A DNA stretch of 64,000 nt, from positions 27,637 through 91,636 of the forward strand of contig JACQPY010000009.1 in the NCBI GenBank assembly GCA_016207275.1. The letters run 5' to 3'. Source of the DNA: Candidatus Kerfeldbacteria bacterium. Its GTDB lineage: Bacteria > Patescibacteriota > Patescibacteriia > SBBC01. The notes under the pieces are model-generated. The model saw nothing but the letters and a program-made list of their open reading frames with translations. It was not told the origin of the DNA and did no database searches. Position 1 is the stretch's first letter, and every line of letters begins with the position of its first letter. This document shows positions 12,614-47,445 of the stretch, one piece after another. A program made the translations under genes and the position numbers.

Positions 12614-13306
12614 TTAGGTTGAACGGTGCTCAAAGAAACGCTGGAGGTACTTTGCCACCAGGTCAAATTCAAGATTCACGCCGTCGCCGATGCGTTTTTC
12701 ATTTAGGTTGGTGTGCTGCCAGGTATACGGAATGACGTGGGTGGTGAAGCTCCACGGCCTCACGGCCGTGGTTTCTCTCGATACGTGGTTCTGTGGAGCG
12801 GAACCCCGCATCCGTCCCGCCGCAGGCGGGACTGGTGCGTGGGTAAAAAAGTTTTTGTTCACGTCCACCACGGTCAAGCTGATCCCCTCAACCGTAACCG
12901 GCGTTTTGGCGGCCACTAGGTTCAACAACTTTTTGGCTTTGACGGTAATAGTAAGGACGTGAGAATTTCCTGCCCGAGCGACAGAAGCAATCGTGCCCAC
13001 GGTGTCCACTAATCCATGCACAAAATTACCGCTGATTTGATCGCCCAGCGCCAACGGCTGTTCAAGATTGACAACACTGCCGGCGATCAGCGTTGACAGA
13101 TTCGTGCGCTTCAATGTTTCCGGCATGTACTGAAACTGCAAATCCGGTCGGGTTCCGATGACCGTCGAACACACCCCGTTGACCGCAATGCTCTGACCAA
13201 CCTTCACCCTCCAGCCCTTCGGCGTGGCGACGATCAAACGCAGGCCTTGCCGGTCTCGGCGGATCCGCTTGACCCTGCCGGTAGCAGAAATAATTCCACT
13301 AAACAT
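12614..13306 (-). CDS. ribE: Riboflavin synthase alpha subunit, with an in-frame hairpin-repeat insertion
   Basis: 230 aa. MFSGIISATGRV...AVNGVCSTV and a second lumazine-binding repeat. An insert of roughly 30 aa (THAPVPPAAGRMRGSAPQNHVSRETTAVRPWS) is encoded around the hairpin GTCCCGCC-GCAG-GCGGGAC (12813-12831). Confidence 0.85.
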   Translation of the reverse strand: MFSGIISATGRVKRIRRDRQGLRLIVATPKGWRVKVGQSIAVNGVCSTVIGTRPDLQFQYMPETLKRTNLSTLIAGSVVNLEQPLALGDQISGNFVHGLVDTVGTIASVARAGNSHVLTITVKAKKLLNLVAAKTPVTVEGISLTVVDVNKNFFTHAPVPPAAGRMRGSAPQNHVSRETTAVRPWSFTTHVIPYTWQHTNLNEKRIGDGVNLEFDLVAKYLQRFFEHRST

Positions 13307-13458
13307 GCGGTTTACCGGCGCTTACGCTCCGCTTCGAGAATCACCAGGGTCGTTCTCAACATCCCGACTATGAACAGAATAATTACCTTTTTCTGGCGAA
13401 GGATTTTCCGAACACTCCTTCGGCTCTGCTTCTAAAATCTTTCCGAAAAACGAGTGGA

Positions 13459-13734
13459 CTAACTTCGCTTCCTTCGAAACACGCCTTCCGCCAAGTACTC
13501 TTTCATCAACGACTGATACGGAATATGCAACTCATTCGCCCGTTCCTTAATCCGAATCAATAGATACGAAGGAACGCGCAGCGAGATAGCGTGCGACGTC
13601 GGTTTGAGATCCGGAAAATGTACTGATTCGGCCTTTGACCAATCAACGTAGCGCGTCGAATCGTGGCGTTGCCAAAATCGCCGTTCGTCTGCTTCGCTCT
13701 TAAACTTAGGCAACTTTTTTAAACTTCTTTTCAT
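13459..13734 (-). CDS. brnA: BrnA-like antitoxin (type II toxin-antitoxin)
   Basis: 91 aa. ERRFWQRHDSTRYVDWSKAESV, then a C-terminal ribbon-helix-helix-like region. Overlaps the toxin gene by 29 nt. Confidence 0.75.
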   Translation of the reverse strand: MKRSLKKLPKFKSEADERRFWQRHDSTRYVDWSKAESVHFPDLKPTSHAISLRVPSYLLIRIKERANELHIPYQSLMKEYLAEGVFRRKRS

Positions 13735-14014
13735 AGATGCCCCTTTCCCGCTTATTCGCTGGTCTTGATGAAATTACTCTGATCATGTTGTTCCTGATAG
13801 TAAATACCGTGAATAATACCTTGCCTCTTTTCGACTGCCCTAACATGCGCCACCGCGACTCACGACGGCTGTGTTTCTTGTCGTAGCTGACAAGATTATC
13901 ATTGAAAAACGCTTCTTCCGTTTCGGCTGGACTGACACCGTGTTTTCGTGCACTTTTTCCCTTATTCCATTCATCCCAGATGAATCCCTTCACACCTTCT
14001 AAAATGGCCGCCAT
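13706..14014 (-). CDS. brnT: BrnT-like toxin (RelE/ParE-fold ribonuclease, DUF497)
   Basis: 102 aa. FIWDEWNKGKSARKHGVSPAETEEAF...VFTIRNNMIRVISSRPANKRERGIY. Toxin gene upstream of antitoxin, as in BrnTA. Local GC is low. Confidence 0.75.
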   Translation of the reverse strand: MAAILEGVKGFIWDEWNKGKSARKHGVSPAETEEAFFNDNLVSYDKKHSRRESRWRMLGQSKRGKVLFTVFTIRNNMIRVISSRPANKRERGIYEKKFKKVA

Positions 14015-14020
14015 GTTTCT

Positions 14021-14045
14021 ATTGTATATACTATTCTATACAATG
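14021..14045 (-). promoter_or_regulatory. Palindromic operator/-10 region upstream of brnT
   Basis: TTGTATA-N7-TATACAA inverted repeat 7-30 nt upstream of the brnT start. Contains TATA-rich -10-like hexamers. Confidence 0.45.
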
Positions 14046-14070
14046 TCAATAGGCACCGCAGAGAATGCCT

Positions 14071-14101
14071 CTAAAAGCTATAAGCTAACAGCTACAAGCT
14101 A
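14071..14101. repeat. Copy of the AAAAGCTA(T)AAGCTAACAGCTACAAGCT repeat family
   Basis: Same motif as 44836-44861 and 46325-46354. Confidence 0.55.
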
Positions 14102-14139
14102 TTTCTCTTTTTCCGCCTCCAAAATCGCCAGTGTCGTCT

Positions 14140-15510
14140 TCAAGCGCGCGAGCGCGCAATTGAATGAGTTAACCGTTGAAGCGCCGGGCTCACCCTCATC
14201 CCGTACCGAGCTTTTGTGGAGATGTTGAAAAGTTGCGGCGAGAACTTATTAGCTTCCCGGCGATACCGTCCACCGATTTCCTGCAATGACGGAAACTTAT
14301 ACACCAGCTTTCCGTTTCTGATAATCGGAACGAGAAGTTTCTTTCCGGCGTGTGGCTCATCCTCAAGACCTAAAGCATCATGGTAGTACTTTTTTCCGCG
14401 CAAAATACGATAGATTTGTTTTCGTCCAGGATACGACGCCTTGCCTGTCGAGGTCTTCATCACCGGCATCATCTTTCCCTGACGCTCGATTTCCGACATC
14501 TTGTAAACCATTTCCAAGGTCGGTGCATCAGTCGGCACGAGCAACTCGGTCACGCCGGCATAAAAATCAATTGGCGCTTTGCGCCGCTCAAGGTCCTGAA
14601 CCTTCCACTCGTCTAAGTTTCCCATCGCGAATATTTTGGCGTACGGAAGGTTAGCTTCATCCAGCATCTTCCTGGCTTGGACGCTTAATGAGTGTAAATC
14701 GCCACTGTCTAACTGTACTCCAACTGCACGCTTTCCTTCCAGCTCAAGCTCTTTGGCGGCGGTAATGAACTTCTTGATGCCCTGGACCGTGTCATAGGTA
14801 TCTACGAGTACATACCCTTTGCCGCCCAGACCTCGTAAGTACGCGCGGATGGCATCCAACTCTTCGTCGAACGCCATGATCAAGTAGTGGAACGTGCCCG
14901 TATAAAAAGGGCTGCTCTCGTGCTTGTAGTGGTAGGTGGCGAGTGTGTTAGTGATGCCGAAAATCTCATTGATTCTGGCTGACCGCATTGCTGCATCAAG
15001 GCCGTAGGTCCGGTTGAACCCGATCCCGACCTGTTTTCCGTTCGCGGCGCGAACAAATCGCGAAATTTTTGAAGCCAAAATCGTCTGTACGTAAATTTCA
15101 TTCGTCACCAGCATCTCGATGAGCTGCGCCTCAACCAACGGTGCCGTAATCCTCACGATCGGCTCCTGGGCAAAGAAAATAGTTCCTTCCCGCATCGCCC
15201 ACAGATCGCCGGTAAATCGATAACTCTTAAAGTACTTAAGAATATTCGGTGGGAAGTGGAGTGTTTTTCGTAACCAGCGCAATCTCGCTGAATCAATCCG
15301 CAGATTCAGCAGGTGTTCGGCCACATGTTCAAGTCCGGCAAACACTAAAAAATTCCTGGTCTTCGGCAGTTCGCGCACAAACAAATCAAAGGTGGTTTTT
15401 TTATCGGCTAGACCTTCATCAAAAAACACCGAAGCCAGCGCAAATCGCGAACTGCTGGTGAACAACGACAGGTCTTCGGATCGGAGGAAATCATTAATCA
15501 TTCGTAACAA
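14140..15510 (-). CDS. pncB: Nicotinate phosphoribosyltransferase
   Basis: 456 aa, NAPRTase family. LVDTYDT motif and overall length fit. Confidence 0.85.
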   Translation of the reverse strand: MLRMINDFLRSEDLSLFTSSSRFALASVFFDEGLADKKTTFDLFVRELPKTRNFLVFAGLEHVAEHLLNLRIDSARLRWLRKTLHFPPNILKYFKSYRFTGDLWAMREGTIFFAQEPIVRITAPLVEAQLIEMLVTNEIYVQTILASKISRFVRAANGKQVGIGFNRTYGLDAAMRSARINEIFGITNTLATYHYKHESSPFYTGTFHYLIMAFDEELDAIRAYLRGLGGKGYVLVDTYDTVQGIKKFITAAKELELEGKRAVGVQLDSGDLHSLSVQARKMLDEANLPYAKIFAMGNLDEWKVQDLERRKAPIDFYAGVTELLVPTDAPTLEMVYKMSEIERQGKMMPVMKTSTGKASYPGRKQIYRILRGKKYYHDALGLEDEPHAGKKLLVPIIRNGKLVYKFPSLQEIGGRYRREANKFSPQLFNISTKARYGMRVSPALQRLTHSIARSRA

Positions 15511-15518
15511 CCGAAAGT

Positions 15519-17930
15519 TTATCTCTCTTTTTCAGCTTCAAGAATCACGAGCGTCGTCTTCAGCACCGTGTCCGGATTGAGCGAAATCGAGTCAATCCCC
15601 TGCTTGACCAAAAACTTGGCCAGCTCAGGAAAATCCGATGGACCTTGGCCGCAGATGCCGATCTTACGCTTGGCTTTCTTGGCTTTGGCAATGGCCGTCT
15701 GCAACATCCACTTGACTGCCTCGTTGTTCTCGTTCCCCACGCTGCTAACGAGCTGCGAATCGCGGTCAAGCGCCAAGGTGAATTGCGTCAAATCGTTCGA
15801 GCCGATGGAAAAACCGTCGAAAACTTTGGCAAACTCCTCGGCCAGCACCACGTTGGCTGGCAATTCGCACATCACGTAGACTTCAAGCCCGTCTTTGTGC
15901 TGCCGCAATCCATGCCTGGCCATGAGCGAAATAACTTTTTTTCCCTCTTCCACTGTCCGGCACATCGGCACCATCACCTTAATGTTCGTCAGGCCGAACT
16001 TCTCTCGCACCCGTTTCAGCGCCTTGACTTCAAGCGCAAAGGCCGGCTCGAACTCCGGGTCGTAATATCGCGCTGCCCCGCGCCAGCCGAGCATCGGGTT
16101 CTCTTCGTGCGGCTCGAATTCCTTGCCGCCGATGAGGTTGGCGTATTCGTTGGTTTTGAAATCCGACAAACGCACGATCACGTCCTTCGGATGAAAAGCC
16201 GCGGCAATCATGCCGATTCCCTGCGACAATTTGTCCACAAAAAATTCTTTCTTATCTCGGTAACCAACGGTCAACTCGTCAATCTGCTTGACCGCCCGCC
16301 GGTCCTTGAGCTTCGGGTATTTGATCAGCGCCAGCGGATGAATTTTTATCCAGGCCGCGGCAATGAATTCCTCGCGCAACAGTCCGATTCCGTCATTGGG
16401 AATGAACGAGTCAGTGAAAGCGCGGTCGGGCGCGGCCACAATCATCATTACCTTGGTGGTCGGCCGCTTGAGTTTCTTTAAATCAACGGCTTTGACCGTG
16501 AACGGCAGAATTCCGGCATAGACCTTTCCTTTTTCACCCTCAGCCGCCGAAACGGTCACACCTTGGCCGGTCCTTATAACCCTGGTGGCGTTATTCGTGC
16601 CGACTACCGCCGGAATTCCCAGCTCGCGCGAGACAATGGCCGCGTGCGACGTCCGGCCGCCGCGGTTGGTCACAATGGCCGATGCAATTTTCATGATCGG
16701 CTCCCAGTCCGGATCAGTGATGTCGGTCACCAGTACCTCACCCGGCTTGAACTTGCCGATCTGCTTCACGTTAAAAATCACCCGCGCTTTGCCAGAACCG
16801 ATTTTGGCACCGATGGCCATGCCGGTCGTCAATTCCCTGCCGCGTTTCCTGAGTTCGTACGTTTCCAGTTTGGACACGTCCTTGCGCGACACCACGGTCT
16901 CTGGCCTGGCCTGCACGATGTAAAGCTGTTTCGTCAACCCGTCCTTGGCCCATTCCATGTCCATCGGTTTACCGTAATGCTTTTCAATCAGCACGCCCCA
17001 GCTAGCCAGCTCCAGCGCTTCCTTGTCCGTCAGGCAGAACCGCGTTCGCTCCGATTCAGTCGTCGGCACGTTCTTGGTCGGCTGGCGATTTGCATTCGCC
17101 GCATTCGCATGAATTCGTAGATTCGCATATACCATCTTGATGTTCTTGTCGCCGAGCTGCCTTTTGATGATCGGCTTGAATCCTTTTTGGAGCGTCGGTT
17201 TGAACACAATGAACTCGTCCGGCGTAACCTTGCCCTGCACAATGTTCTCGCCTAACCCCCACGAGCCATTGATCAAGATCACGTTCCGGAAACCAGAGTC
17301 AGTATCGAGCGTGAACATCACGCCGGAGCTGGCTTTATCCGAGCGCACCATTTTCTGCACGCCGACCGACAATGAAATCTTGAAATGATCGAAGCCCTTG
17401 TCCTGCCGGTAGCTGATAGCGCGGTTCGTGAAGAGCGAAGCAAAACCCTTCTTGGTTGCCTCAATCACGGCCTCGGCGCCGCGGATGTTGAGGTAGGTTT
17501 CTTGCTGACCGGCGAACGAGGCGTCGGGCAAATCCTCGGCTGTGGCGGATGAACGAACGGCCACGTCGCAGTGCTTACCGTATTCGCGTTCGAGTTTTGC
17601 ATAAGCCGTCCTGATGGCCCGTTTGAGATCGGTCGGCAGCTCAACGCGAAGAATCGCCTCGCGCACGCGGCGGCCGCGGTCCGAGAGATTCTCCATGTCA
17701 TGCGTATTGAGGCCTTTGAGAATCTTTCGAATCTCTTTCTTCAGCCCAGTCTTGATAATGAAGAACTGGTAGGCGGCGGAAGTGATAGCAAAGCCGTTCG
17801 GAATACGAATGCCCTTTTTCGTCAGGTGTCGGTACATTTCGCCCAGGGATGCGTTTTTCCCTCCGACCAGACCAACGTCGCTTTTCCCGAGGTCCTTAAA
17901 CCACAACACCAACTGTTTCTTTCTACTCAT
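15519..17930 (-). CDS. ppsA: Phosphoenolpyruvate synthase (pyruvate, water dikinase)
   Basis: 803 aa. PEP-utilizing mobile domain GGRTSHAAIVSRELGIPAVVG and a C-terminal PEP-binding TIM barrel. Confidence 0.85.
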   Translation of the reverse strand: MSRKKQLVLWFKDLGKSDVGLVGGKNASLGEMYRHLTKKGIRIPNGFAITSAAYQFFIIKTGLKKEIRKILKGLNTHDMENLSDRGRRVREAILRVELPTDLKRAIRTAYAKLEREYGKHCDVAVRSSATAEDLPDASFAGQQETYLNIRGAEAVIEATKKGFASLFTNRAISYRQDKGFDHFKISLSVGVQKMVRSDKASSGVMFTLDTDSGFRNVILINGSWGLGENIVQGKVTPDEFIVFKPTLQKGFKPIIKRQLGDKNIKMVYANLRIHANAANANRQPTKNVPTTESERTRFCLTDKEALELASWGVLIEKHYGKPMDMEWAKDGLTKQLYIVQARPETVVSRKDVSKLETYELRKRGRELTTGMAIGAKIGSGKARVIFNVKQIGKFKPGEVLVTDITDPDWEPIMKIASAIVTNRGGRTSHAAIVSRELGIPAVVGTNNATRVIRTGQGVTVSAAEGEKGKVYAGILPFTVKAVDLKKLKRPTTKVMMIVAAPDRAFTDSFIPNDGIGLLREEFIAAAWIKIHPLALIKYPKLKDRRAVKQIDELTVGYRDKKEFFVDKLSQGIGMIAAAFHPKDVIVRLSDFKTNEYANLIGGKEFEPHEENPMLGWRGAARYYDPEFEPAFALEVKALKRVREKFGLTNIKVMVPMCRTVEEGKKVISLMARHGLRQHKDGLEVYVMCELPANVVLAEEFAKVFDGFSIGSNDLTQFTLALDRDSQLVSSVGNENNEAVKWMLQTAIAKAKKAKRKIGICGQGPSDFPELAKFLVKQGIDSISLNPDTVLKTTLVILEAEKER

Positions 17931-17985
17931 TGTCTGTCTCCTTTACGTACAGTCAAACGTCACAAATCAAATGTCAAAAGTTTCT

Positions 17986-19217: not shown

Positions 19218-19415
19218 CGACCAGAACATCTGGGACGGCGCCGCGCTGGACGGGCGGCTGCCGGGAGGAAGTTCTTCCGATTTTCCGGCGCTCGTCAACA
19301 CCATCCTGTCCCTCGGCATTTCGATGAGTGCCCGCGAGTAACCTGTTCGTCGGGACCAAACCTACCCCAGGTCCAGTTCATCGGACCTGGGGTGCATCAT
19401 ATTTATTAAAGCCCT

Positions 19416-19445
19416 CTCCTCCCCGCGAAAGCGGGGACCGAGGAG
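19416..19445 (-). terminator. CCCCGC-GAAA-GCGGGG hairpin repeat downstream of groEL (terminator-like)
   Basis: CTCCTCCCCGCGAAAGCGGGGACCGAGGAG lies 30 nt after the groEL stop on the minus strand, followed by CTTTAATAAAT. The same 30-mer occurs inside uvrC. Confidence 0.5.
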
Positions 19446-19475
19446 GGGGCGCTTACGGAGTGAGCGGGGGGGAGA

Positions 19476-21451
<1,976 letters not shown>

Positions 21452-22451: not shown

Positions 22452-22453
22452 GA

Positions 22454-26501: not shown

Positions 26502-26642
26502 GAAGGGTCAAGATACGCCTCCCATCTTCGAGGGGAGGGGAGGAAGTCCCGACGCGCTTCGCGGTCGGGACGACGGAGAGGGGTTATACTATCCCCCTGG
26601 ATCCAGCGCCTTTCACAAAAGGTGCTGGAGACGGGAGGGGGT

Positions 26643-27846: not shown

Positions 27847-29688
27847 GTGCCAACGACAGCAAAATTCCGTTCCGCCCTGACCAAGCTACCCCGCCAACCC
27901 GGCGTCTACTTATTTAAAGATGACACTGACGCCGTCCTCTACGTTGGCAAGGCGAAATCTCTCAAACCACGCGTCCGCAGTTACTTTCAGCGCTCGGCCT
28001 CACTCGATCCAGCCAAACGGGTCATGGTCAATCGCGTGGCCGACCTTGAATACATCATCGTTGACTCCGAAATCGAAGCGCTGCTGCTTGAGTCCACGCT
28101 GATCAAGAAGTACCGTCCGCCGTACAACGTCATCTTTACCGACGACAAATACTACCAGTACATCCGCCTGACGCTCAAAGACGACTTCCCGCGGGTCGAT
28201 ACTGTTCGTCGGATCACTAAAGACGGCAGTCGCTACTTCGGCCCGTTTACCTCCAATTACGCCCTCAAGCAAACGCTCAAGTTGCTCAAACGAATTTTCC
28301 CGTTTCGCAGCTGCACTGAACCAGCCGACCGTCTTTGTTTTGACGCTCGACTGGGCCGCTGCCTGGGCCATGACTTCGGGCCGAACAGCCGCCAGCGGTA
28401 TGCCGACGTCATCCGCGGACTGATTCGGTTTCTGGAAGGCGACGTAACCAGCACGCTCCGCGACCTCAAGCAGGAAATGCAGGAGGCGGCGGCCAAGCGC
28501 GAATTCGAGCTGGCCGCCCGGTTGCGCGACCGAGTCTACGCCATTCAAAAAGTTGTCGCCGAGCAGAAGGTCGTTTCCACCAAGCTGGAAAACGAAGACT
28601 ACCTCGGCCTGGCCCGGGTGGCTGATCTAACCACGGTGGTCGTTTTTCAAGTTCGGCTGGGCAAGCTGCTCAACCGGTCGACCGTCATGCTCCAGCACAC
28701 CGAAGGAACGTCCGACACCGACGTGCTGGCCTCGTTCATCAGTCAGTACTACGCCCAGTCGACCGACCACCCGCGCACCGTCGTCACCCGTTTACTGCCA
28801 ACTGACAGCACCACGCTTGGCCGCGCCCTGCAGCTCCGGATTGAAGCGCCCAACCGCGGTCGGCGGCGCAAGTTAGTGCGGCTGGCCGAGTCAAACGCCA
28901 AAGACTACCTCGAACGCAAACAGCGCGAGTGGTTGTCCAAAGAAGCCCGCGCCAAGCTCGGCTTGGCAGAGCTGCAACACGCTCTCCTGCTAACCGAGCC
29001 GCCTGATCGCATCGAATGCTACGACATCTCCAATGTCCAGGGTACGAACGCCGTCGGCTCGCTGGTGGTGTTCGAACGCGGGTTGCCGAAGAAATCGGAC
29101 TACAAGAAGTTTCGCATCAAGACCGTGGCCGGCGCTAACGACTACGCCATGCTGCAGGAGGTCCTAAAACGACGGTTTGAAGGCCATTCCCCTCCTCCCC
29201 GCGAAAGCGGGGACCGAGGAAGGGACACGGCGAAGCCGAGGGGAGGAGTCGCAAAGCGACAGGAGGGGTGGGAGAATCCCGACCTCATCATCATCGACGG
29301 CGGCAAGGGCCAGCTCAACGCATCATTGGTCATCCTGAGGAATCTCAGGATCTCAATTCCCACCATCGGCTTAGCCAAACGCGAAGAAGAAATCTTCCGG
29401 CCGGGACAAAAAGACTCAATCAAGTTATCGAAGGATTCCGAAGGCTTGTTCCTGGTTCAGCGCATCCGCGACGAAGCGCACCGTTTTGCCATCGGCTACT
29501 ACCGGAAGCGGCACGGCACCGCCACCACCACATCGCTGCTTGACGAAGTGCCGGGCATCGGACCGACGACGAAGCGTCTCCTCCTCCAGCGCTTCGGAAG
29601 CATTGAGCACATCCGAGCTGCGGAGGACGCAGTGCTCGAAGAGCTCATCGGAAAGAAAAGGACGGAACTCCTTCGTCAGTACCTCTAG
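27847..29688 (+). CDS. uvrC: Excinuclease ABC subunit C, with an in-frame repeat insertion
   Basis: 613 aa. GIY-YIG region (GVYLFKDDTDAVLYVGKAKSLKPRVRSYF), UvrBC domain, RNase H-like and HhH. An insert HSPPPRESGDRGRDTAKPRGGVAKRQEGWEN separates RRFEG from PDLIIIDGGKGQ. Confidence 0.95.
   Translation: MPTTAKFRSALTKLPRQPGVYLFKDDTDAVLYVGKAKSLKPRVRSYFQRSASLDPAKRVMVNRVADLEYIIVDSEIEALLLESTLIKKYRPPYNVIFTDDKYYQYIRLTLKDDFPRVDTVRRITKDGSRYFGPFTSNYALKQTLKLLKRIFPFRSCTEPADRLCFDARLGRCLGHDFGPNSRQRYADVIRGLIRFLEGDVTSTLRDLKQEMQEAAAKREFELAARLRDRVYAIQKVVAEQKVVSTKLENEDYLGLARVADLTTVVVFQVRLGKLLNRSTVMLQHTEGTSDTDVLASFISQYYAQSTDHPRTVVTRLLPTDSTTLGRALQLRIEAPNRGRRRKLVRLAESNAKDYLERKQREWLSKEARAKLGLAELQHALLLTEPPDRIECYDISNVQGTNAVGSLVVFERGLPKKSDYKKFRIKTVAGANDYAMLQEVLKRRFEGHSPPPRESGDRGRDTAKPRGGVAKRQEGWENPDLIIIDGGKGQLNASLVILRNLRISIPTIGLAKREEEIFRPGQKDSIKLSKDSEGLFLVQRIRDEAHRFAIGYYRKRHGTATTTSLLDEVPGIGPTTKRLLLQRFGSIEHIRAAEDAVLEELIGKKRTELLRQYL
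29185..29280 (+). repeat. In-frame GC-rich hairpin-repeat insertion inside uvrC
   Basis: Contains the 30-mer CCTCCTCCCCGCGAAAGCGGGGACCGAGGA, identical to the groEL-downstream copy at 19416-19445, plus a second hairpin GTCGC-AAA-GCGAC. Confidence 0.7.
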
Positions 29689-31688: not shown

Positions 31689-33491
31689 GTGACCAACCCT
31701 CTGACCGCATTAATCCGCTGGGTTCGCTCCCGCCGCGCCGCTGGTGCGGCGAGTGTTGGTGACGATCCGCTGGCGCACCGTGAACGAGCCCTGGTCCATA
31801 CCTTGGCCAAGTCGCGCCTGCCCAGCCTGCGGCAGCTGCGCTACCTGTCCAAAGTACTGGCCCCAACTGAGCTATTTCTGGTCCGGGCGCTCAGCGGCTT
31901 CGTCGTCGTCGCCCTCATTTTTCTCGGCGCCCGCGCCTACGCCCGGAACGTCGTCCACCTACCACGGTCAGGCGGCGAAGTCGTCGAGGGGCTGGTCGGC
32001 ACGCCGCAGTACCTCAACCCGATCCTGCTCGGCACAAACGACGTCGATCGCGACCTGACTCGCCTGCTCTTCGCCGGCCTACTGAAACGCAACGAGCGAC
32101 AGGAGATTGTGCCCGACTTGGCGTCGTCAATCGACATCAGCGAAGACAAAAAAGTCTACACGGTTACGCTCCGCAACAACCTGCGCTGGTCAGACGGCGA
32201 GCCGCTCAACGTCGAGGACGCGCTGCTGACCTTCAGCCTGATCCAGGACCAGCTCTATAAAAGTCCGCTCCGCAGCCAATTCCGCAACGTCAAAATTGAA
32301 CGCCTTGACGACCAGACCATTCGTTTCACGCTCAACCAGGCCTCGGCCGCCTTCCTAGCCAGCCTGACCGTCGGCCTTATCCCGACCCACATTTGGGGGG
32401 ATGTGCCGCCAACCAGCTTCGCCCTGGTCGAGTATAACGTCAAGCCGGTCGGCGCCGGTCCCTTCACCTTTGAATCACTCAAGCGCGACGCCAGCACCGG
32501 CGCGATCAAAGAGTACCACTTGGCCCGTAACGACGGGTACCACGGCCAGCGACCCTACCTTGATCGTCTGTCGCTAAAAATTTTCCCCGAGTTGCTGTCC
32601 GCGGTTGATGCCCTCCAATCAAAACGAGTCGAGAGCCTCAGTGTGGTGCCGGCCGACGCCCGGATCACACTCAAGCAGGCCCAAGCCCGCGACCTCCAAC
32701 TTCCGCGCTACACCGCCGTCTTCTTCAATGGCCGCCGAAACCTCCTCAAACCGATTGAGGTTCGCCGAGCGCTGGCCCAAAGCATCCCGCGTGCCCAGAT
32801 CGTGATTGACATCCTCCACGGTGCCGCCACGGTCGTCGATGGGCCATTTGCCAGCGATCTACCTGGCCACGCCGGTAAACTCCAGCCAGACTACGATCCG
32901 GCCGCCGCCAACGCCGCGCTTGAGGCCGCCGGCTGGATCAAACCCGAGGGTTCCGCCGTCCGCAAAAAAGGGAACGACGAGCTGGCACTGACGCTGACCA
33001 TTGTCGACCAACCCGAGGACCGCGCCATCGCTGAACTCATCAAGCAGCAGTGGGAAGGGATCGGCGTCAAAGTCGAACTCCGACCGGTTGATGCCACGCT
33101 CATTGCTAAAGAGGTCATTAAACCGCGCAACTACGACGCCTTCCTCTACGGCGAAATCATGCCCGGCGACGGCGACCTCTACCCGTTCTGGCACTCGTCA
33201 CAGGATCGCGATCCCGGCCTTAACCTGACGACCTTTTTCAACAAAGATGCGGACAAGCTGTTGGAAGAGTTACGAACCACCACTGACCCGGCGGTGGTGT
33301 CTGAAAAGCGGATTGCTTTCCAGCGCCTCCTGGCTGAGCAGCTCCATGCTATTTTCCTCTACTCGCCGTACTACACCTACGGTTTGGCCAAGCGCGTCCA
33401 GGGCTTCGACGTCCGTTACGTGACTACGCCGGCCGACCGCTTCGCCAACATTGAACGCTGGTACGTTAAAACCAAAATAGCGCTCAAGTAG
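31689..33491 (+). CDS. ABC transporter substrate-binding protein (family 5, peptide/nickel type), membrane-anchored
   Basis: 600 aa with N-terminal TM anchor and SBP_bac_5-like body. Confidence 0.8.
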   Translation: MTNPLTALIRWVRSRRAAGAASVGDDPLAHRERALVHTLAKSRLPSLRQLRYLSKVLAPTELFLVRALSGFVVVALIFLGARAYARNVVHLPRSGGEVVEGLVGTPQYLNPILLGTNDVDRDLTRLLFAGLLKRNERQEIVPDLASSIDISEDKKVYTVTLRNNLRWSDGEPLNVEDALLTFSLIQDQLYKSPLRSQFRNVKIERLDDQTIRFTLNQASAAFLASLTVGLIPTHIWGDVPPTSFALVEYNVKPVGAGPFTFESLKRDASTGAIKEYHLARNDGYHGQRPYLDRLSLKIFPELLSAVDALQSKRVESLSVVPADARITLKQAQARDLQLPRYTAVFFNGRRNLLKPIEVRRALAQSIPRAQIVIDILHGAATVVDGPFASDLPGHAGKLQPDYDPAAANAALEAAGWIKPEGSAVRKKGNDELALTLTIVDQPEDRAIAELIKQQWEGIGVKVELRPVDATLIAKEVIKPRNYDAFLYGEIMPGDGDLYPFWHSSQDRDPGLNLTTFFNKDADKLLEELRTTTDPAVVSEKRIAFQRLLAEQLHAIFLYSPYYTYGLAKRVQGFDVRYVTTPADRFANIERWYVKTKIALK

Positions 33492-33569
33492 CAACGACTG
33501 ACATTTGACTTTTGACGTGTGACTAATGAATGTTAAGTTTGAGTAGTCAGAAGTCAAATTTTTTCACAA

Positions 33570-34631: not shown

Positions 34632-34675
34632 CCCCGCACTCGATCCTGAGCCTGTCGAAGGAGAGTAGTGCGGGG
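34632..34675. repeat. CCCCGCACT...AGTGCGGGG hairpin repeat with GATCCTGAGCCTGTCGAAGG core
   Basis: Same family as 3514-3563. Confidence 0.55.
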
Positions 34676-34883
34676 ATAACACCGACATCTGCCTTTGCGC
34701 ACGACTTGTCCCGAGCTTAGCGAGGGATCTAGTGCCCAACGACTGCTGGTCCGGCCGAAATGGCCCATCCATCAGAACACAGCTCAATAATTCCATTCAG
34801 AACACCGTTTCTGTGTTGCGGTTAATCAAGAATCCTCTGACGTTTCTCTCTAACCTGAATTACGTCGCTGCGGAAGCGGCGAC

Positions 34884-34968
34884 GATCACCCTTCGAGAGC
34901 CTCAGGGTGACCCTGAGCAAGTCGAACGGGTCAGGGTGTCCGAAGGACGGGTCCCTAGCGGAGCCGCG
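34884..34968. repeat. 85-bp GC-rich palindromic repeat (CACCCTTCGAGAGCCTCAGGGTGACCCTGAGCAAGTCGAACGGGTCAGGGTG...)
   Basis: About 85% identical to 47497-47585. Contains the perfect palindrome CTCAGGGTGACCCTGAG. Intergenic between nudix and rnj. Confidence 0.6.
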
Positions 34969-35034
34969 ACCAGCGACACCGTGCAGGGAAAGGGGGAGCA
35001 TCGGAGGGGGAAACCGTAGGTTTCCCACCCGAAT

Positions 35035-36948: not shown

Positions 36949-37914
36949 ATGGAAGAACGTATCCTGTCCGGCATCCGCCCGTCCTCGCGCCTGCATATCG
37001 GCAACTACCTCGGCGCGATCAAGCAGTGGATTGAGCTCCAGCACCGCGCCCGCTGCTTTTTCATGATCGCCGACCTGCACGCTATTACCACGCCGTACGA
37101 GCCAGCGGAACTGCAACAGGCTATCCGCGACGTCGCCCTCGACTACCTGGCGGCCGGGCTTGACCATCATAAAGTAACACTCTTCGTCCAATCACACGTG
37201 CCTGAGCACGTTGAATTGGCCTGGCTGTTTTCTACGCTCGTGCCGGTTGGCGAACTCCACCGGATGACCCAGTTCAAAGAGAAAAGCACGAAGGCTTCGC
37301 TCGCGAACCTCGGCCTACTCGCCTACCCCGTACTCATGGCCGCAGACATTTTGATTTACCAAGCTCACGAAGTACCGGTTGGTGAAGACCAAACGCAGCA
37401 CGTTGAATTAGCACGCGTGATCGCCCGCAAGTTCAATGCTAAATACGGCCAGGTTTTTCCTGAGCCGAAAACAATCTTATCTGGCGGCAAACGCATCATG
37501 TCATTGTCCGACCCAAGTAAGAAAATGTCGAAGACCGATGGCGGCGGCATCCAGCTCGATGATTCCCCTGAGGTCATCAAGAAAAAAGTCATGAAAGCCG
37601 TCACCGCCACCAAAGGTGGGGAAGGCAACGCTGGCGTCATGAACCTATTCACCTTACTCAAAGAATTCAGCGATCCAACGACCTACCGGCAGTTCCTGAA
37701 CGCCGAAGAAACCGGCACCATCAAGTACGCCGAGCTCAAAGCGCAGCTGGCCGACGACATTGCTCGACACTTTGCCGCCTTCCGAGAAAAACGCAAAGCG
37801 TTGGCCGGCAACCACCGCTACCTCGAGGAAATTTTGAGTGCCGGCGCTGAGGAAGCCCGGGCCACGGCCAAAAAAACGCTCGACCAGGCAAAGCAGCTGA
37901 TGGGATTGGCATGA
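36949..37914 (+). CDS. trpS: Tryptophanyl-tRNA synthetase
   Basis: 321 aa with HIGN (HIGH) and KMSKT (KMSKS) class I motifs. Confidence 0.95.
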   Translation: MEERILSGIRPSSRLHIGNYLGAIKQWIELQHRARCFFMIADLHAITTPYEPAELQQAIRDVALDYLAAGLDHHKVTLFVQSHVPEHVELAWLFSTLVPVGELHRMTQFKEKSTKASLANLGLLAYPVLMAADILIYQAHEVPVGEDQTQHVELARVIARKFNAKYGQVFPEPKTILSGGKRIMSLSDPSKKMSKTDGGGIQLDDSPEVIKKKVMKAVTATKGGEGNAGVMNLFTLLKEFSDPTTYRQFLNAEETGTIKYAELKAQLADDIARHFAAFREKRKALAGNHRYLEEILSAGAEEARATAKKTLDQAKQLMGLA

Positions 37915-38588
37915 GAAAATCTATCCCGCTCATCCTCGCGCTCGTCATCCTCATGACTGTCACCCTGAGGCTCTCGAAGGGTGACGTTGCTTTCGCCGCC
38001 GCAAAATCGTTTGACATCGTCGCCACTTCATCCTCTTTTTCGCCATCATCCATTACCGTCGATCCAGGGGATGTCGTTACCCTCAACTTTTCCGTCCCGT
38101 CCACTGACAGTTACTGCTGCGGCCTCGACGTCCGCTCGTCAGCTTTCAGCACCGTCACCATTGCCAAGGGTGGCAGCGGCAACGCCACCTTCACTGCGTC
38201 GTCATCGTTCACTTTTTCCTCGTACTGGCCGGCCAGCTCAATCCACAAAGCTGATGGCACCGTCACGGTTCAAACTGCCGCCGTCCAACCACCAACCAAT
38301 ACGAATACGACTATCGTCAAGCCGACCATCAGCAAGGTCCAACCAGGAAAGTTCAAACAAAAAACCGAAGGCTCGTTTTCCATCATCATTACCGGCACCG
38401 AGTTCAAAACTGGAGCCGCAGTCAAAGTCGGTAAAGTCAAAGCCTCGAAAGTATCGCGCCTGTCCAGCACGAAACTCAAGGCCATCATTCCGCGAAAAAA
38501 CCTGGCCGCGGGCAAGTACGACGTTACCGTCACGAACAAAGACGGCGGGAAAACCACCAAGAAACGCGCCGTAACTATTGTGAAGTAG
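37911..38588 (+). CDS. Hypothetical secreted protein with C-terminal IPT/TIG-like Ig domain. A repeat element sits in-frame after the signal peptide
   Basis: Signal peptide MRKSIPLILALVILM. Next comes TVTLRLSKGDVA, encoded by the palindromic repeat GTCACCCTGAGGCTCTCGAAGGGTGAC (37959-37985). Confidence 0.6.
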   Translation: MRKSIPLILALVILMTVTLRLSKGDVAFAAAKSFDIVATSSSFSPSSITVDPGDVVTLNFSVPSTDSYCCGLDVRSSAFSTVTIAKGGSGNATFTASSSFTFSSYWPASSIHKADGTVTVQTAAVQPPTNTNTTIVKPTISKVQPGKFKQKTEGSFSIIITGTEFKTGAAVKVGKVKASKVSRLSSTKLKAIIPRKNLAAGKYDVTVTNKDGGKTTKKRAVTIVK

Positions 38589-41946: not shown

Positions 41947-42099
41947 AGCTGTTCTAACTATACCACGGCTCGGCTCGATGGAAAAACCCTTACCCGGTTA
42001 GAAGTCGTCCCGATGGAACAGGCTTTTATCGACACGCCGATATATCGTTAACCCACCAATACGCTTTTTTCTTCCAATGACTTGTAACGGGGTTTACAG

Positions 42100-43208: not shown

Positions 43209-43209
43209 C

Positions 43210-44460
43210 ATGCCAACCCTCAATCAGTCCGATCCCGAACTGGCCGCCGGGCTGCAGCGCGAACTCGAACGGCAGCGGTCCGGCTTGGAAATGATCGCTT
43301 CGGAAAACTTTGTCTCGCCAGCCGTGCTCGCCGCCCTCGGCAGCGTGGCCACCAACAAGTACTCCGAAGGGTACCCCGGCAACCGCTACTACGGCGGCAA
43401 CCAATTTATTGATCAAGTGGAAAGCCTCGCCGTCAGCCGCGCCCAGCAACTATTCGGGGCGGAACACGTCAACGTCCAGCCGCTGTCCGGCGCGCCGGCC
43501 AACATTGCGGTCTACTCGGCCCTGCTGCAACCCGGCGACACGGTTTTAGGCATGGACTTGGGCCACGGCGGGCACTTGACGCACGGTCATCCGGTCACCT
43601 GGATGGCCAAGCTGTTCAACTTCGTCCGCTACAAGACCGATCCGGCCACCGGACTCATTGACTACGATCAGGTTCGAGAACTAGCCAAGGCCCATCAACC
43701 AAAACTGATTCTCGTTGGCTACTCCGCCTACTCTCGCGAGATCGACTACGATAAGTTCAAAACGATTGCCGACGAAGTTGGCGCGCTGACCATGGCTGAT
43801 GTTGCCCATATCGCCGGATTGATTGCCGCCAAATTGATGAACAACCCCGTCCCGCTGTTTGACGTGGTCACGACCACCACCCATAAAACGCTCCGCGGGC
43901 CGCGGGGCGGGATGATTCTCTGCCGCGAGCAGCACGCCAAAGCCATTGACAAGGCCGTCTTCCCGGGATTCCAGGGCGGTCCGCACGAAAACAACATCGC
44001 TGCAAAAGCGGTGGCCTTCAAGGAAGCCTTAGAACCGTCCTTCAAGGAGTACGCCCAGCAAATCATGAAAAACGCCAAAGCGCTCGAACACGCTTTTCGA
44101 GCGGGCGGCCTGACCATCTGCTTCCAGCAAACGGACAACCATCTGCTCCTGCTCGATGTGACCTCAGTTGGCTTGTCCGGCAAACAGGCGCAAGACCTTC
44201 TCGACTCGGTCGGCATCACCGTCAATAAAAACATGATTCCCGACGATCAACGAAAACCAATGGACCCATCGGGTATCCGGATCGGCACGCCCGCACTAAC
44301 CACCAGAGGATTTACCGAAGCTGACATGACCCGGATCGGCGAAATGATTGTCAAGGTGCTGCGCTCGCCGAACGACGAGTCAGTCCAACAGCAAGCCCGC
44401 CAGCTGGTTCGAGAACTGACTGCTGCCCATCCGCTGTATCCAGGCTTAGCTTATCGCTGA
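43210..44460 (+). CDS. glyA: Serine hydroxymethyltransferase
   Basis: 416 aa: [24 protein letters not shown] (PLP lysine region). Confidence 0.95.
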
Positions 44461-44478
44461 TAGCTTGTAGCTTTTAGA
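44455..44478. repeat. Left inverted repeat flanking the four-helix-bundle gene
   Basis: CGCTGATAGCTTGTAGCTTTTAGA is the reverse complement of the right arm at 44836-44861. It starts at the glyA stop codon. Confidence 0.6.
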
Positions 44479-44484
44479 GGAAAG

Positions 44485-44847
44485 ATGTACGTAGAATCGT
44501 TCAAACAGCTCACTGTTTGGCAACGAGCCATTGAGGTTATTAAAGAAATTTATCAAGTCACCGCTCGTCTACCCGTAGCCGAACAATACGGATTGATTGG
44601 ACAGATGCGACGTGCGGCGGTTTCTATTCCAGCCAACATCGCCGAAGGTAAAAAGCGTAAAACCAAACGAGACTTCCGCTCGTTCTTGCGAACGGCTGAT
44701 GGTTCGGCTGCTGAGCTCGAAACGCTGATCATTGTTGCTGGTCAAGTTTACCCGACCATCGACTTTTCTCGATGTTCTTCGCCCCTGACTGAGGTTCAAA
44801 AAATGCTAACAGCTATGATACAAAAACTTGAAGCTTCTAAAAGCTAA
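44485..44847 (+). CDS. Four-helix-bundle protein (23S rRNA intervening-sequence / Avd-like family)
   Basis: 120 aa: LTVWQRAIEV...IPANIAEGKKRKTKRDFRSFLRTADGSAAELETL, hallmark of the PF05635-type family. Confidence 0.8.
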   Translation: MYVESFKQLTVWQRAIEVIKEIYQVTARLPVAEQYGLIGQMRRAAVSIPANIAEGKKRKTKRDFRSFLRTADGSAAELETLIIVAGQVYPTIDFSRCSSPLTEVQKMLTAMIQKLEASKS

Positions 44848-44861
44848 CAGCTACAAGCTAT
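44836..44861. repeat. Right inverted repeat flanking the four-helix-bundle gene (TCTAAAAGCTAACAGCTACAAGCTAT)
   Basis: Inverted copy of 44455-44478 and member of the family also at 14071 and 46325. It ends 8 nt before the folD start. Confidence 0.6.
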
Positions 44862-44869
44862 AAACTCTC

Positions 44870-45709
44870 ATGGCACAGCTTATTGACGGACGCTCACTGG
44901 CCGCCGCTATTCGGCGCGCGTTGCCGCTACGGATTGCCAAGCTCCCCCGCCGACCGGGTCTCAGTGTAATGCTCGTCGGCCACGATCCAGCTTCCGAGCT
45001 GTACGTCAAGCTCAAAGGCAAAGCGGCCCAGACCGCTGGCATTCGCTTTACCCTCGAACGGTTCAGTCAAAGCGTTAACCAACACGAGCTCCTCGGTCGC
45101 CTTCAAGCGTGGAACACAGATCCGGAGGTTGACGCCATGCTGATCCAGCTGCCGCTGCCACGGCACCTACGCGAACAGCCGATCATCGAACAGCTGGTGC
45201 CGGAAAAAGACGTTGACGGCTTTCATCCAATCAACACGGCCCGTTTTCTGTCCGGCCAGCGTAGCGATCCGCCGGGTCTGGTTGAGGGTATTCTGCGACT
45301 GATCGCCGCCACTGGCGTTCCGCTCGGCGCACTGACCGCCACCATTGTCGCCCGCTCCAGTGTCTTTACCGACTGCCTTGAGCACGCTCTCCGATTGCAC
45401 GGCGCTTTTCCCCGAACGGTTCCGCCCAACGACACGCATCGAACAGCGACGCTCGAAGCTGATGTGGTGGTGATTGCGGCCGGTCGGCCAAAGTTACTTG
45501 TTGGCGACGATCTTAAGCCAGGGGCAATCGTCATTGATGTCGGTATCAACGCGTTGCCTGATGGTTCGATTGTTGGCGATGTCGACCGCCAATCAGTCGA
45601 GCGGGTCGCCAGTTGGTTAACGCCGGTCCCGGGTGGCGTTGGGCCGATGACCATTGCCATGCTCTTGGAAAACGTCGTCCGCATTGCCGAACGAAACGAA
45701 GTACTATGA
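44870..45709 (+). CDS. folD: Bifunctional methylenetetrahydrofolate dehydrogenase/cyclohydrolase
   Basis: 279 aa: MAQLIDGRSLAA...VMLVGHDPASELYVKLKGKA... Confidence 0.9.
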   Translation: MAQLIDGRSLAAAIRRALPLRIAKLPRRPGLSVMLVGHDPASELYVKLKGKAAQTAGIRFTLERFSQSVNQHELLGRLQAWNTDPEVDAMLIQLPLPRHLREQPIIEQLVPEKDVDGFHPINTARFLSGQRSDPPGLVEGILRLIAATGVPLGALTATIVARSSVFTDCLEHALRLHGAFPRTVPPNDTHRTATLEADVVVIAAGRPKLLVGDDLKPGAIVIDVGINALPDGSIVGDVDRQSVERVASWLTPVPGGVGPMTIAMLLENVVRIAERNEVL

Positions 45710-46248
45710 GCCGAGTCGAGCGCTCGCCACTTCGTTACTTTAAGTTCTGCCCACGATGCGGCAGACAGCTTCGGATTTCGAAAGTTGACGGACATCCGCA
45801 TTTGAAATGCGATCAAGGAGACTTCGTATTTTTCCAGAACCCCCACAGCGCCGTCAGCGGGCTAATCTTTGATCGTCGCGGTCGTGTCATGCTGGTCAAA
45901 CGTAAATACAATCCCAAAAAAGGATTCTGGGATACCCCGGGCGGCTTTGTGGGATGGGGCGAAAATCCCAAACAAGCCGTTATTCGCGAACTGCGTGAAG
46001 AGTTGAAGGTCCATTTTCAACCGCAGGATTTGTCCGGTATTTTTCACGACTGGTATGACATGTTCAACCTGCGATACTCCGTTTACAACATTTACTACAC
46101 CGGAACGATCAGCGGTCGACCGAGACCGGCCTCTGACGTGGCTGCCATCCGATGGTTCCCCCTCAACCGGCTACCCCAAAAAATTAGCTTCTCACATATA
46201 CGTCGAGCGCTCCGACACTACCGAACTACGCACCAGAAAAAATCATGA
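45706..46248 (+). CDS. NUDIX hydrolase with N-terminal zinc ribbon (NudC-like)
   Basis: CPRCG...KCDQGDF then the Nudix box GGFVGWGENPKQAVIRELREELKV. Start taken at the internal ATG (MSRVERS) overlapping the folD stop (ATGA). The upstream ORF extension overlaps folD. Confidence 0.7.
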   Translation: MSRVERSPLRYFKFCPRCGRQLRISKVDGHPHLKCDQGDFVFFQNPHSAVSGLIFDRRGRVMLVKRKYNPKKGFWDTPGGFVGWGENPKQAVIRELREELKVHFQPQDLSGIFHDWYDMFNLRYSVYNIYYTGTISGRPRPASDVAAIRWFPLNRLPQKISFSHIRRALRHYRTTHQKKS

Positions 46249-46277
46249 GCCTCCACATCGGAATCGTCGGCCTTTAT

Positions 46278-46354
46278 GAGCTTTGAGCTTTTGGCTTATA
46301 GCTGTTAGACGCCTCGTCACGATCCTAAAAGCTAACAGCTATAAGCTACAAGCT
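46278..46354. repeat. Stand-alone hairpin built from two inverted copies of the AAAAGCTAACAGCTATAAGC repeat
   Basis: Perfect 15-bp stem GCTTATAGCTGTTAG / CTAACAGCTATAAGC with a 22-nt loop, intergenic between nudix and ychF. Confidence 0.6.
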
Positions 46355-46362
46355 GAACCTCT

Positions 46363-47445
46363 ATGTCATTACAGATAGGAATTGTCGGTCTTCCCAACGT
46401 CGGCAAGTCAACGCTCTTTCAGGCGCTCACCAAAAAGAAAGTTGACACCTCGAACTATCCCTTCGCGACCATTGACCCCAACGTCGGCGTGGTGGCTGTT
46501 CCTGACGAACGGCTTGCCCAGCTGGCTCGGGTGGCCAAGTCCAAAGAAATTATTCCGACCACCATCGAGTTCGTCGACATTGCCGGATTGGTCAAAAACG
46601 CGCACCAGGGCGAGGGCCTCGGCAACCAGTTTCTTCAAAACATTCGTGAGACCGACGCCATTGTCGAGGTCGTCCGCGCCTTTACCGATCCCAACGTCAT
46701 CCACGTGGCCGGCAAAGTTGAGCCAAAAGAAGACGTTGAAACAATCAACCTCGAACTGATCTTTGCTGACCTGGCAATTGTCAGCAAGCGGCACGAAAAC
46801 GTCTTGCGCCAGCTCAAATCAGGCACCAACCGTCAGGTTGAACAACAGCTCGGCGCGCTGACCAAATTCAAAGAAGCGCTTGAAGCGGGCCGGCCAGCGC
46901 GTTCGGTCGAACTGACCGATGATGAACGCGGGCACATCAAGGATATGAACCTGCTGACCGCCAAGCCGATCCTTTACGTCCTGAACGTCGGAGAAGGCTC
47001 CCCTCCGCCCTTGGGGGGAGGGGTCGGGGGAGGTGGGCTGGACGGCCCCGTCGTTCCCCTCTCAGTCAAAATTGAGTCTGAACTGGCTGAGCTTTCCGCC
47101 GAAGACGCCGCCACGTTCATGCGCGACCTCGGCCTGAGAGAATCGGGGCTGGATCAGTTGATTAAAGCTGCCTACCAAACGCTCAACTTGATCACGTTCT
47201 TTACCGCCGGCCCCAAAGAAACCCGTGCTTGGACGGTCAAGCGCGGCACCAAAGCGCCGCAGGCTGCCGGCGTCATCCACACCGACTTTGAAGAGGGTTT
47301 CATCCGCGCCGAAATTATAAACTGGAAAGAGTTTGTTGATGCTGGCGGCGACGTCAGGGCTAAAGAGCTCGGAAAGGTGAGAATTGAGGGAAAAGAGTAT
47401 ATTATTCAAGACGGAGATGTTGTTCACTTTCACTTCCAAACCTAA
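46363..47445 (+). CDS. ychF: Ribosome-binding ATPase YchF, with an in-frame hairpin insertion
   Basis: 360 aa. [12 protein letters not shown]1 motif and TGS C-terminal domain. Insert [22 protein letters not shown] is encoded around the palindrome CTCCCCTCC-GCCCTTGG-GGGGAGGGG (46998-47025). Confidence 0.9.

Follow-up and report, generated by a model that had tools for sequence, protein, structure and literature searches.

Palindromic repeats that lie in frame in housekeeping genes were described in Rickettsia by Ogata et al. (2000 Science, 2002 Genome Res) and are known as Rickettsia palindromic elements (RPE; reviewed in PMC10969869). [quoted passage not shown] Repetitive extragenic palindromes (REP) and REPIN are imperfect palindromes of 20–50 nt, chiefly extragenic and sometimes arranged as head-to-head doublets. 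Here, we analyzed a 64-kb stretch of Candidatus Kerfeldbacteria bacterium (contig JACQPY010000009.1), a member of the candidate phyla radiation (CPR), and we call this whole stretch the window. It comes from a 106-kb contig of one metagenome-assembled genome (MAG), has a guanine plus cytosine (GC) content of about 57%, and is the scope of all counts given for the window. We confirmed that four of its genes, namely uvrC, ychF, ribE and a gene for a secreted protein, hold GC-rich hairpin repeats while their reading frames remain unbroken. A preliminary description of this DNA had reported frame-preserving palindromes in these genes; all of them were found where it had placed them, and the open reading frames (ORFs) read through.

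The repeats fall into three unrelated families, which we call F1 (in uvrC and ychF), F2 (in the secreted-protein gene) and F3 (in ribE). The explanation that we prefer, with a probability of about 0.72, is that three dispersed hairpin-repeat families, usually intergenic and often near gene ends, were copied into permissive coding sites of this lineage. The coding segments are insertions or indels relative to orthologues; non-coding copies of the same sequences occur in the window, in sister genomes and in unrelated contigs; and the sites are empty in pieces of related genomes in which we found no such repeats. The window has four F1 sites, six good F2 copies and one F3 site, and all three families recur in unrelated metagenomic or viral contigs, chiefly in intergenic DNA. 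Related loci were used for comparison (L001, L002, L003, L004, L005, L030, L126 and L127). No F1 was found in the 6–21 kb examined in L001, L005 and L126, and these loci have the empty sites: the ychF of L001, the ribE of L005 and the uvrC of L126 all lack the segments. These relatives thus do not carry them as non-palindromic coding sequence, which is what the preliminary description had named as its refutation.

The proteins are full length and, as had been proposed, have gained loops rich in Pro, Gly and Arg. The proposed comparison with orthologues also placed the inserts at fold-compatible positions, using an AlphaFold model for ribE, a break in the alignments to structures in the PDB for uvrC, and a loop of variable length among CPR bacteria for ychF. 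The earlier interpretation was supported, with three corrections. Two of them, given below, concern the nature of the ychF and signal-peptide events and the position of the palindrome in the secreted protein. The third concerns the assumption of a single MITE/REP-like family; the repeat behavior and the tolerance of coding copies stand, but the families are three and unrelated. Because the hallmarks of neither MITEs nor REPs were demonstrated, “REP/MITE-like” describes how the repeats behave and not a class to which they belong.

The closest precedent is the RPE. Both kinds of repeat lie in frame in unrelated housekeeping genes, encode a peptide compatible with the fold, have non-coding copies, and comprise several families per genome. 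However, the RPE are about 100–150 bp long and confined to Rickettsia, whereas the present elements are 27–104 nt long and have a CPR host. A further difference is the spread of F1 and F2, whose sequence is conserved among contigs of 35–70% GC, phage-like ones among them. By analogy, the Kerfeldbacteria elements are a counterpart of the RPE and not a member of them, the likeness being one of outcome and not of sequence comparison. A scan of the window against Rfam 15 returned tRNA alone at the gathering threshold, and no repeat family was matched.

F1, which we defined from 39 distinct IMG/VR copies, has two hairpins and a G-rich tail (GGGGTGG or GGGGAGG). In the first hairpin (H1), the 5' arm is the pyrimidine sequence CCCCTCCT and the 3' arm the purine sequence AGGAGGGG; the second (H2) is free in sequence and precedes the tail. 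H1 was found in uvrC (29189–29224), at the 3' end of groEL (19413–19448) and in ychF (47000–47023). The intergenic copy at 19413–19478 (plus strand) lies directly 3' of groEL, which occupies 19476–21110 on the minus strand with its stop codon at 19476–19478; its H2 is CGCT..AGCG and its tail is GGGGGGAGA. An F1-like intergenic sequence at 26518–26600 (plus strand), with H1 CCTCCC..GGGAGG, H2 GTCCCGAC..GTCGGGAC and a G-rich tail, lies upstream of uvrA, a gene identified from synteny with L004 and L127. Intergenic F1 copies also occur in sister genomes (L002 3303–3345; L003 1123–1197 and 3086–3131; L004 277–403 and 4149–4195; L127 11966–12020).

F1 stands 3' of groEL in three genomes (the window, L004 and L127), and copies at gene 3' ends resemble SPRITE and terminator-like repeats. 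However, a simple terminator scan did not call the groEL-side copy, which has 4 T in 8, and the in-gene copies have no U-tract on the sense strand. Many viral F1 copies, when read on the opposite strand, run into T-rich sequence.

The uvrC gene (27847–29688, plus strand, GTG start) encodes 613 amino acids, is intact apart from a composite F1 insert, retains all UvrC Pfam domains and is 100% identical at the protein level to a Candidatus Kerfeldbacteria UvrC. The F1-derived segment, SPPPRESGDRGRDTAKPRGGVAKRQEGWE, spans 29188–29274 (plus strand) and was delimited by orthologue comparison and by an exact match outside the gene. It runs from H1 (CCCCTCCTC and GAGGAAGGG enclosing CCCGCGAAAGCGGGGACC) through H2 (CGGCGAAGCCG), the tail (GGGGAGGAG) and a further hairpin (GTCGCAAAGCGAC) to AGGAGGGGTGGGAG. 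H1 has one C-A mismatch and carries a nested hairpin inside its loop. The preliminary description held that uvrC and the groEL side have a 30-mer in common; an exact copy indeed starts at 19416, but it measures 29 nt, with 19416–19444, just past the groEL stop, equal to 29192–29220 in uvrC. Over 36 nt the identity is 94%, and the two copies are 9.8 kb apart.

Between the conserved HS and GW, the window UvrC has 25 residues, whereas L126 and basal CPR orthologues have 3–4 (about 4). The loop is flanked by ...RRRFxxH(S) and GWxxPDL and has gained about 21–25 residues. PDB alignments of UvrC split at residues 451–477, which is exactly where the insert lies. Many UvrC proteins of Kerfeldbacteria and of distant CPR bacteria have SPPxRGG-type inserts of variable length at the same point (SPPLRGGDTAKPRGG, SPPARGGVPEGRGG), and one of them has the F2-like peptide ALSLSKGG in this loop. 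The composition of the insert at this site differs among sister genomes. The uvrC of L127 holds a textbook F1 copy (TCCCCTCCTCTAAGAGGAGGGG-ACACGGCGAAGCCGA-GGGGAGGAG), and the copy in the uvrC of L004 is identical in 46/47 nt to a copy in L111, an unrelated contig of 46% GC. The nested-hairpin variant common to the uvrC and groEL copies of the window also occurs in L003, in its uvrC and in upstream copies, and the module of H2 plus tail recurs in L002, L003, L010, L016, L030 and L127.

The second coding F1 copy lies in ychF (46363–47445, plus strand, ATG start). This gene is intact and encodes 360 amino acids that match the Haemophilus influenzae YchF 1jal over the full length (E = 7.7e-113) and are 100% identical to a Kerfeldbacteria YchF. 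The copy spans 46999–47037 (plus strand), reads TCCCCTCC-GCCCTTGG-GGGGAGGGG-TC-GGGGGAGGTGGG and encodes 13 residues; its hairpin at 47000–47023 is CCCCTCC-GCCCTTGGGG-GGAGGGG. The tail is present and H2 is missing, as in 5 of 39 viral F1 copies. The clade's usual YchF has 355 amino acids and a short native loop, GGLSSPPELTLNG, as in L001, which holds the closest orthologue (88% identity). The loop has 17 residues in the window. The net gain is 5 amino acids, and because some native codons were replaced, the event was not a pure insertion. A homologous F1 copy with 21 identical nt was found in the ychF of L002 (GGAGGGGTCGGGGGAGGTGGG), and P0124 has SPPYQGGVPEGRGGGR there; the window, L002 and P0124 thus have a filled site and L001 an empty one. 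In other CPR YchF proteins, this loop holds PLLGKEG-type peptides. We also considered extra codon conservation of the element between the window and L002. The 7 identical codons were merely suggestive, since a run of 9 codons occurs elsewhere in the gene, and this candidate was set aside.

To follow F1 beyond Kerfeldbacteria, we used the pattern TCCCCTCCTN{3,9}AGGAGGGGTG, which was found in 39 IMG/VR loci with GC contents from 35% to 69%. The 39 distinct copies keep the sequence of H1 and of the tail, GGGGTGGT. Their H2 occurs as 28 different sequences, nearly all with stems of 3–8 bp, and the mean minimum free energy was −7.5 kcal/mol vs −2.9 kcal/mol for shuffles. These hairpins were parsed directly, because the MAFFT alignment mis-registered the arms and RNAalifold thus under-reported H2. 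In-frame copies were found here as well: two in an SPP1-type phage portal gene (L117 1807–3264; ENHPAAEAAPLLRKEGS, IDHPGLTATPPVQEGS) and one in a gene for an AAA_22 ATPase (L108 4408–5376; SPPYEGGVAAAAADGVVL). In L098, L100 and L105, F1 copies form inverted doublets, head to head and with a spacing of about 20 nt. A scan of a genome collection with F1 module B (CGGCGRAGCCGAGGGGAGG) gave chiefly chance matches in high-GC genomes, the real copies being those in L010, L016 and L030 only, and the composite F1 pattern with module B had no match in viral contigs. A blastn search with one F1 copy found no match among PLSDB plasmids or INPHARED phages, and Rfam returned nothing at E ≤ 1 for the copies in L010, L089, L098, L117 and L120.

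The clearest insertion is that in ribE (12614–13306, minus strand), which encodes a riboflavin synthase of 230 amino acids that is intact apart from the insert, is 100% identical to a Kerfeldbacteria RibE and has a mean AlphaFold confidence (pLDDT) of 91. The F3 element spans 12744–12847 (minus strand) and comprises three hairpins, and the inserted block, FTHAPVPPAAGRMRGSAPQNHVSRETTAVRPWS, covers 99 nt at 12749–12847. One hairpin is GTCCCGCC-GCA-GGCGGGAC at 12814–12832 and another lies at 12752–12771. The palindrome described earlier at 12813–12831 is thus present, but it is merely one hairpin of the 99-nt insert. The block of 33 amino acids is missing from 33/33 aligned orthologues, which marks a clean insertion. 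At the DNA level, the empty site in L005 reads AAC TTT followed by TTT ACC ACC CAC, and the window has 99 additional bases between these two parts. Residues 151–184 of RibE have pLDDT values of 54–64 and no secondary structure in the AlphaFold model, and they lie between strands 142–150 and 185–191. Neither this segment nor that of ychF has a second copy within the window.

The F3 pattern CCAGTCCCGCCNNNGGCGGGACGG matches 34 metagenome loci, whereas we estimate that less than one match per terabase is expected by chance. F3 is about 100 nt long. L060 has a full-length homologue between two genes (5139–5232), and in L063 F3 forms the 3' end of an ORF in the same frame as in ribE (...HAPVPPWAGRCG...). 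A target-site duplication at ribE, which the TTTACC..CAC repeat around the insert seemed to offer, was rejected after the alignment with L060, because the ends TTTACCC and GGAGCTTCAC belong to the element itself. As a separate observation, the hairpin CCAGTCCCGCC-NNN-GGCGGGACGG opens a conserved non-coding stretch (...CTGAnAATAGCCCGGTACG...AAGTGCCGGGTA...) in the soil metagenome contigs L057, L059, L067, L082, L085 and L086. Three of these loci were scanned (L057, L067 and L082), and no Rfam family reached the gathering threshold. Rfam also gave nothing relevant for loci with the F3 hairpin or the F2 repeat region.

The F2 coding copy lies in the gene of a secreted TIG-domain protein of 225 amino acids (37911–38588, plus strand; Pfam TIG, E = 3.7e-7; orthologues P0375, P0409 and P0459). 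The palindrome GTCACCCTGAGGCTCTCGAAGGGTGAC at 37959–37985 (plus strand) encodes VTLRLSKGD in the c-region of the signal peptide, and the N-terminus is about 4–5 amino acids longer than in the three orthologues. The preliminary description located it after the signal peptide. The palindrome is indeed there, but the N-termini of the orthologues and the position of the AxA motif put it within the signal peptide: the hydrophobic core precedes it and the AxA motif follows, so that it would be cleaved off.

The other F2 copies are intergenic, so that one of the six good copies in the window is coding. The sequence at 34886–34911 (minus strand), upstream of the RNase J gene, is the 100% reverse complement of 37959–37984, and a 92% copy at 47501–47526 (minus strand) lies downstream of ychF and upstream of rpsF. 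Core copies at 3530–3546 and 34645–34661 (both plus strand) are nested in the hairpins CCCCGCA...TGCGGGG and CCCCGCAC...GTGCGGGG, respectively. The F2 core CCTGAGNNNNTCGAAGG has 10 matches in the window vs 2.1 expected, and 0/100 shuffles reached 10. The 19-mer palindrome CCCTGAGCCTGTCGAAGGG was found in at least 120 IMG/VR loci (L128–L247) with GC contents of 36–72% and unrelated flanks. It is tandem in some loci and forms short arrays in L155 (4639–4699 and 7864–7903).

Two larger structures surround F2 in the window. The copies at 34886 and 47501 each lie in a repeat of about 150 nt made of F2-type palindromes (34868–35020 and 47484–47640, 82% identity). Both stand in long leaders of intergenic DNA, one upstream of the RNase J gene (35035), the other upstream of the rpsF-ssb-rpsR operon; they have an RNA fold z-score of −2.4 and no Rfam match. 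The intergenic hairpins at 3505–3555 and 34634–34677 have the outer stem CCCCGCA...TGCGGGG around the F2 core in common. The same outer stem encloses the first F3 hairpin in many metagenome matches, which suggests that the families are modular.

Other organisms pointed to a possible enzyme for F1. L010 is a MAG labelled Bacteroidota. At 5028–5645 it has an ORF of 131 amino acids with a DUF559 domain (PF04480, E = 1.4e-32) and a complete F1 copy on either side of it, and L089 has the same arrangement at 1136–1796. We fetched 40 DUF559 loci independently from IMG/VR (L248–L287), and took as controls the rest of the same loci and 1.09 Mb of other viral loci. Perfect pyrimidine-armed hairpins reached 2.72/kb within about 250 nt of DUF559, compared with 0.31/kb elsewhere in the loci and 0.08/kb in the other viral loci. 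Inverted hairpins flanked the gene on both sides in 18 of the 40 loci, and a hairpin stood on one side in 8. The flanks that we read in detail are of full F1 type and inverted, with the G-rich tails toward the gene and with loops that are mutually reverse-complementary.

DUF559 has been grouped with Vsr and with the group I intron homing endonuclease I-Bth0305I (PMC3424549, Table 1). As with the Vsr-like (EDxHD) homing endonucleases, a selfish element would here be driven by a small nuclease of the Vsr/DUF559 clade, with DUF559 bracketed by inverted F1. However, I-Bth0305I resides in a phage group I intron, and no intron is involved with F1. We found no description of F1, F2 or F3 elements, or of repeats flanking DUF559 genes, in the literature that we searched. 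We know of no DUF559 protein that acts as a transposase and of no DUF559 activity on F1. The link between DUF559 and F1 is a lead. Tentatively, and at odds that we put well below even, F1 may be the terminal repeat of an unrecognised selfish element of many bacterial lineages and phage-like contigs, whose sole gene would be the Vsr-like DUF559 nuclease. Solo F1 copies might then be its non-autonomous derivatives. Nuclease-initiated repair would have copied them to intergenic sites and also, repeatedly, to permissive loops in essential genes and in phage structural genes.

For the coding copies, we suggest the following course. Copies elsewhere in the genome would have served as templates for those in coding DNA, and selection would retain only copies that add a multiple of three bases, have no stop codon in the used frame and fall into a tolerant loop. 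The permissive sites at which they persist are the UvrC loop, the YchF loop, the turn of a RibE beta-hairpin and the cleaved-off part of a signal peptide. The likeliest route would be copying initiated by a nuclease or by recombination, of a homing or gene-conversion-like kind, and not cut-and-paste transposition. For F1, the candidate enzyme would be the DUF559 nuclease, a Vsr-like PD-(D/E)XK protein whose genes are bracketed by inverted F1 in other organisms. Copying is favored over cut-and-paste because no target-site duplication was seen, because the uvrC loop has been reused by different variants, and because uvrC and the groEL side share a lineage-specific variant within this genome. An intein or intron was considered and dropped, as the inserts are only 27–104 nt long, are translated in frame and have no splicing domain.

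Several results weigh against the copying of dispersed repeats into coding sites. The ribE insert is unique to this MAG. No clear target-site duplication appears at ribE, uvrC or ychF when filled and empty sites are compared. The ychF and signal-peptide events are indels or replacements with a small net gain and not clean insertions. In addition, the native ychF loop already encodes SSPP (TCC AGT CCG CCC), which resembles the left hairpin arm, and part of the ychF hairpin could therefore be native. F1 avoids stop codons no better than random sequence of equal GC content (4.24 vs 4.53 open frames of 6), and we rejected a special avoidance: the elements are no poorer in stops than GC content predicts, and they are tolerated because they are short and GC-rich. 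With regard to mobilization, a hidden Markov model built from the 40 DUF559 sequences found no such gene in either the window or the roughly 130 kb of Kerfeldbacteria loci that we scanned. The effective DUF559 sample is also smaller than 40, because many of the loci (about 26) are related contigs of about 70% GC, and flanking hairpins were present in only 6 of the 14 low- or mid-GC loci.

Among the other explanations, the one that survives best, although we consider it unlikely, is that the in-gene hairpins are kept for a role in the mRNA, such as ribosome pausing at a sequestered AGGAGG, tuning of uvrC and ychF expression or stabilization of the transcript. In its 3' arm, H1 has a strong Shine-Dalgarno-like AGGAGG, F1 occupies the same uvrC loop throughout a whole clade, and H2 pairing is kept through its 28 different sequences. 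The H1 arms and the G-rich tail are likewise conserved while the loops vary between the ychF of the window and that of L002; however, conserved arms are equally expected of a recently copied element. Close relatives do without the inserts (the ychF of L001, the uvrC of L126 and all ribE orthologues), the composition at one site differs between sister genomes, and the same element occurs in either orientation in genes as unrelated as those of a phage portal and an ATPase. These points argue against such a role.

More doubtful still is a classical non-autonomous transposon, that is, MITEs moved by the transposase of an insertion sequence (IS), or REP and REPIN moved as single-stranded hairpins by a REP-associated tyrosine transposase (RAYT) of IS200/IS605 type. 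The elements are short, palindromic and multi-copy, the inverted pairs in L098, L100 and L105 look like REPIN or BIME doublets, and L002 has an IS of the rve family. However, MITEs have two terminal inverted repeats around a core, whereas F1 has one palindrome, a second hairpin and a tail, and here neither a target-site duplication was demonstrated at ribE, uvrC or ychF nor a parent IS with a known transposase found. The aligned copies of F1, F2 and F3 have no GTAG-type REP head, and they differ from REP and REPIN also in their intragenic in-frame copies. We saw no IS with matching ends in the DNA examined, although this search was not exhaustive, and no RAYT gene, for which no systematic search was made. 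A REP or MITE family is usually restricted to one species or genus. In contrast, F1 and F2 keep their sequence across contigs of 35–70% GC, from very different genomes.

It is very improbable that the segments arose in place, by drift of the loops toward Pro/Gly low complexity and by slippage or template switching that makes hairpins locally. The SSPP codons of the native ychF loop, the varying lengths of the uvrC and ychF loops in many lineages and the lack of target-site duplications would all be accounted for in this way. Identities between loci nevertheless largely refute it: the uvrC 29-mer is repeated exactly at an intergenic site 9.8 kb away, other genomes have the uvrC module of H2 plus tail between genes, the uvrC copy of L004 matches an unrelated contig of 46% GC in 46/47 nt, and the entire ribE insert can be aligned with the intergenic element of L060. 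Assembly or binning artefacts, in which repeats were collapsed or wrongly joined, have a negligible probability: short repeats do trouble assemblers and the ribE insert is confined to one MAG, but similar uvrC and ychF inserts occupy the same sites in independent assemblies of other projects (L002/L127, L003 from Logan, L004 and L030), each of the four genes stays in frame before and after its insert, and a false join would seldom introduce exactly 99 nt free of stops and in register.

Some other features of the window were noted. An A/T-rich motif, CTAAAAGCTA(A/T)AAGCTAACAGCTACAAGCT, with AGCT every 6–7 nt, occurs at 14068–14101, 44455–44480, 44836–44866, 46279–46308 and 46325–46360. It is found in both orientations, only in short intergenic gaps and mostly just upstream of starts (folD, ychF and the ORF at 44485), and could be a promoter or operator-type motif. 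GTCAAA-rich inverted repeats (AGTCAAACGTCACAAATCAAATGTCAAAAG) are intergenic at 17951–17985 and 33490–33524, 15.5 kb apart, and are 80% complementary. A direct repeat of 127 nt with 86% identity (1536–1662 and 2035–2161) lies in the first 2 kb, which has a low GC content (46%), and may be a partial gene duplication. The non-coding gap between ychF and the domain of ribosomal protein S6 is unusually long, at about 650 nt (47446–48100). As listed, the ORF for S6 has an N-terminal extension of 111 residues with no Pfam match, and in L002 rpsF follows ychF directly.

To our knowledge, in-frame palindromic selfish DNA in housekeeping genes has so far been treated as a speciality of Rickettsia. An RPE-like outcome is now seen in a CPR bacterium with a small genome, and it comes from three different repeat families. 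That the same loops of UvrC and YchF were used repeatedly marks them as natural permissive sites in these proteins. At least two of the families are present in very different genomes and in phage-like contigs. Such repeats may therefore be a general and so far little-noticed origin of loops inserted into proteins, and they may also yield spurious “hypothetical protein” calls in metagenomes. The inverted F1 copies that bracket DUF559 genes give a testable candidate function for this large domain family. If the proposed F1-DUF559 element is real, the Pro/Gly-rich “SPPxxGG...” peptides in many annotated proteins would be its footprints.

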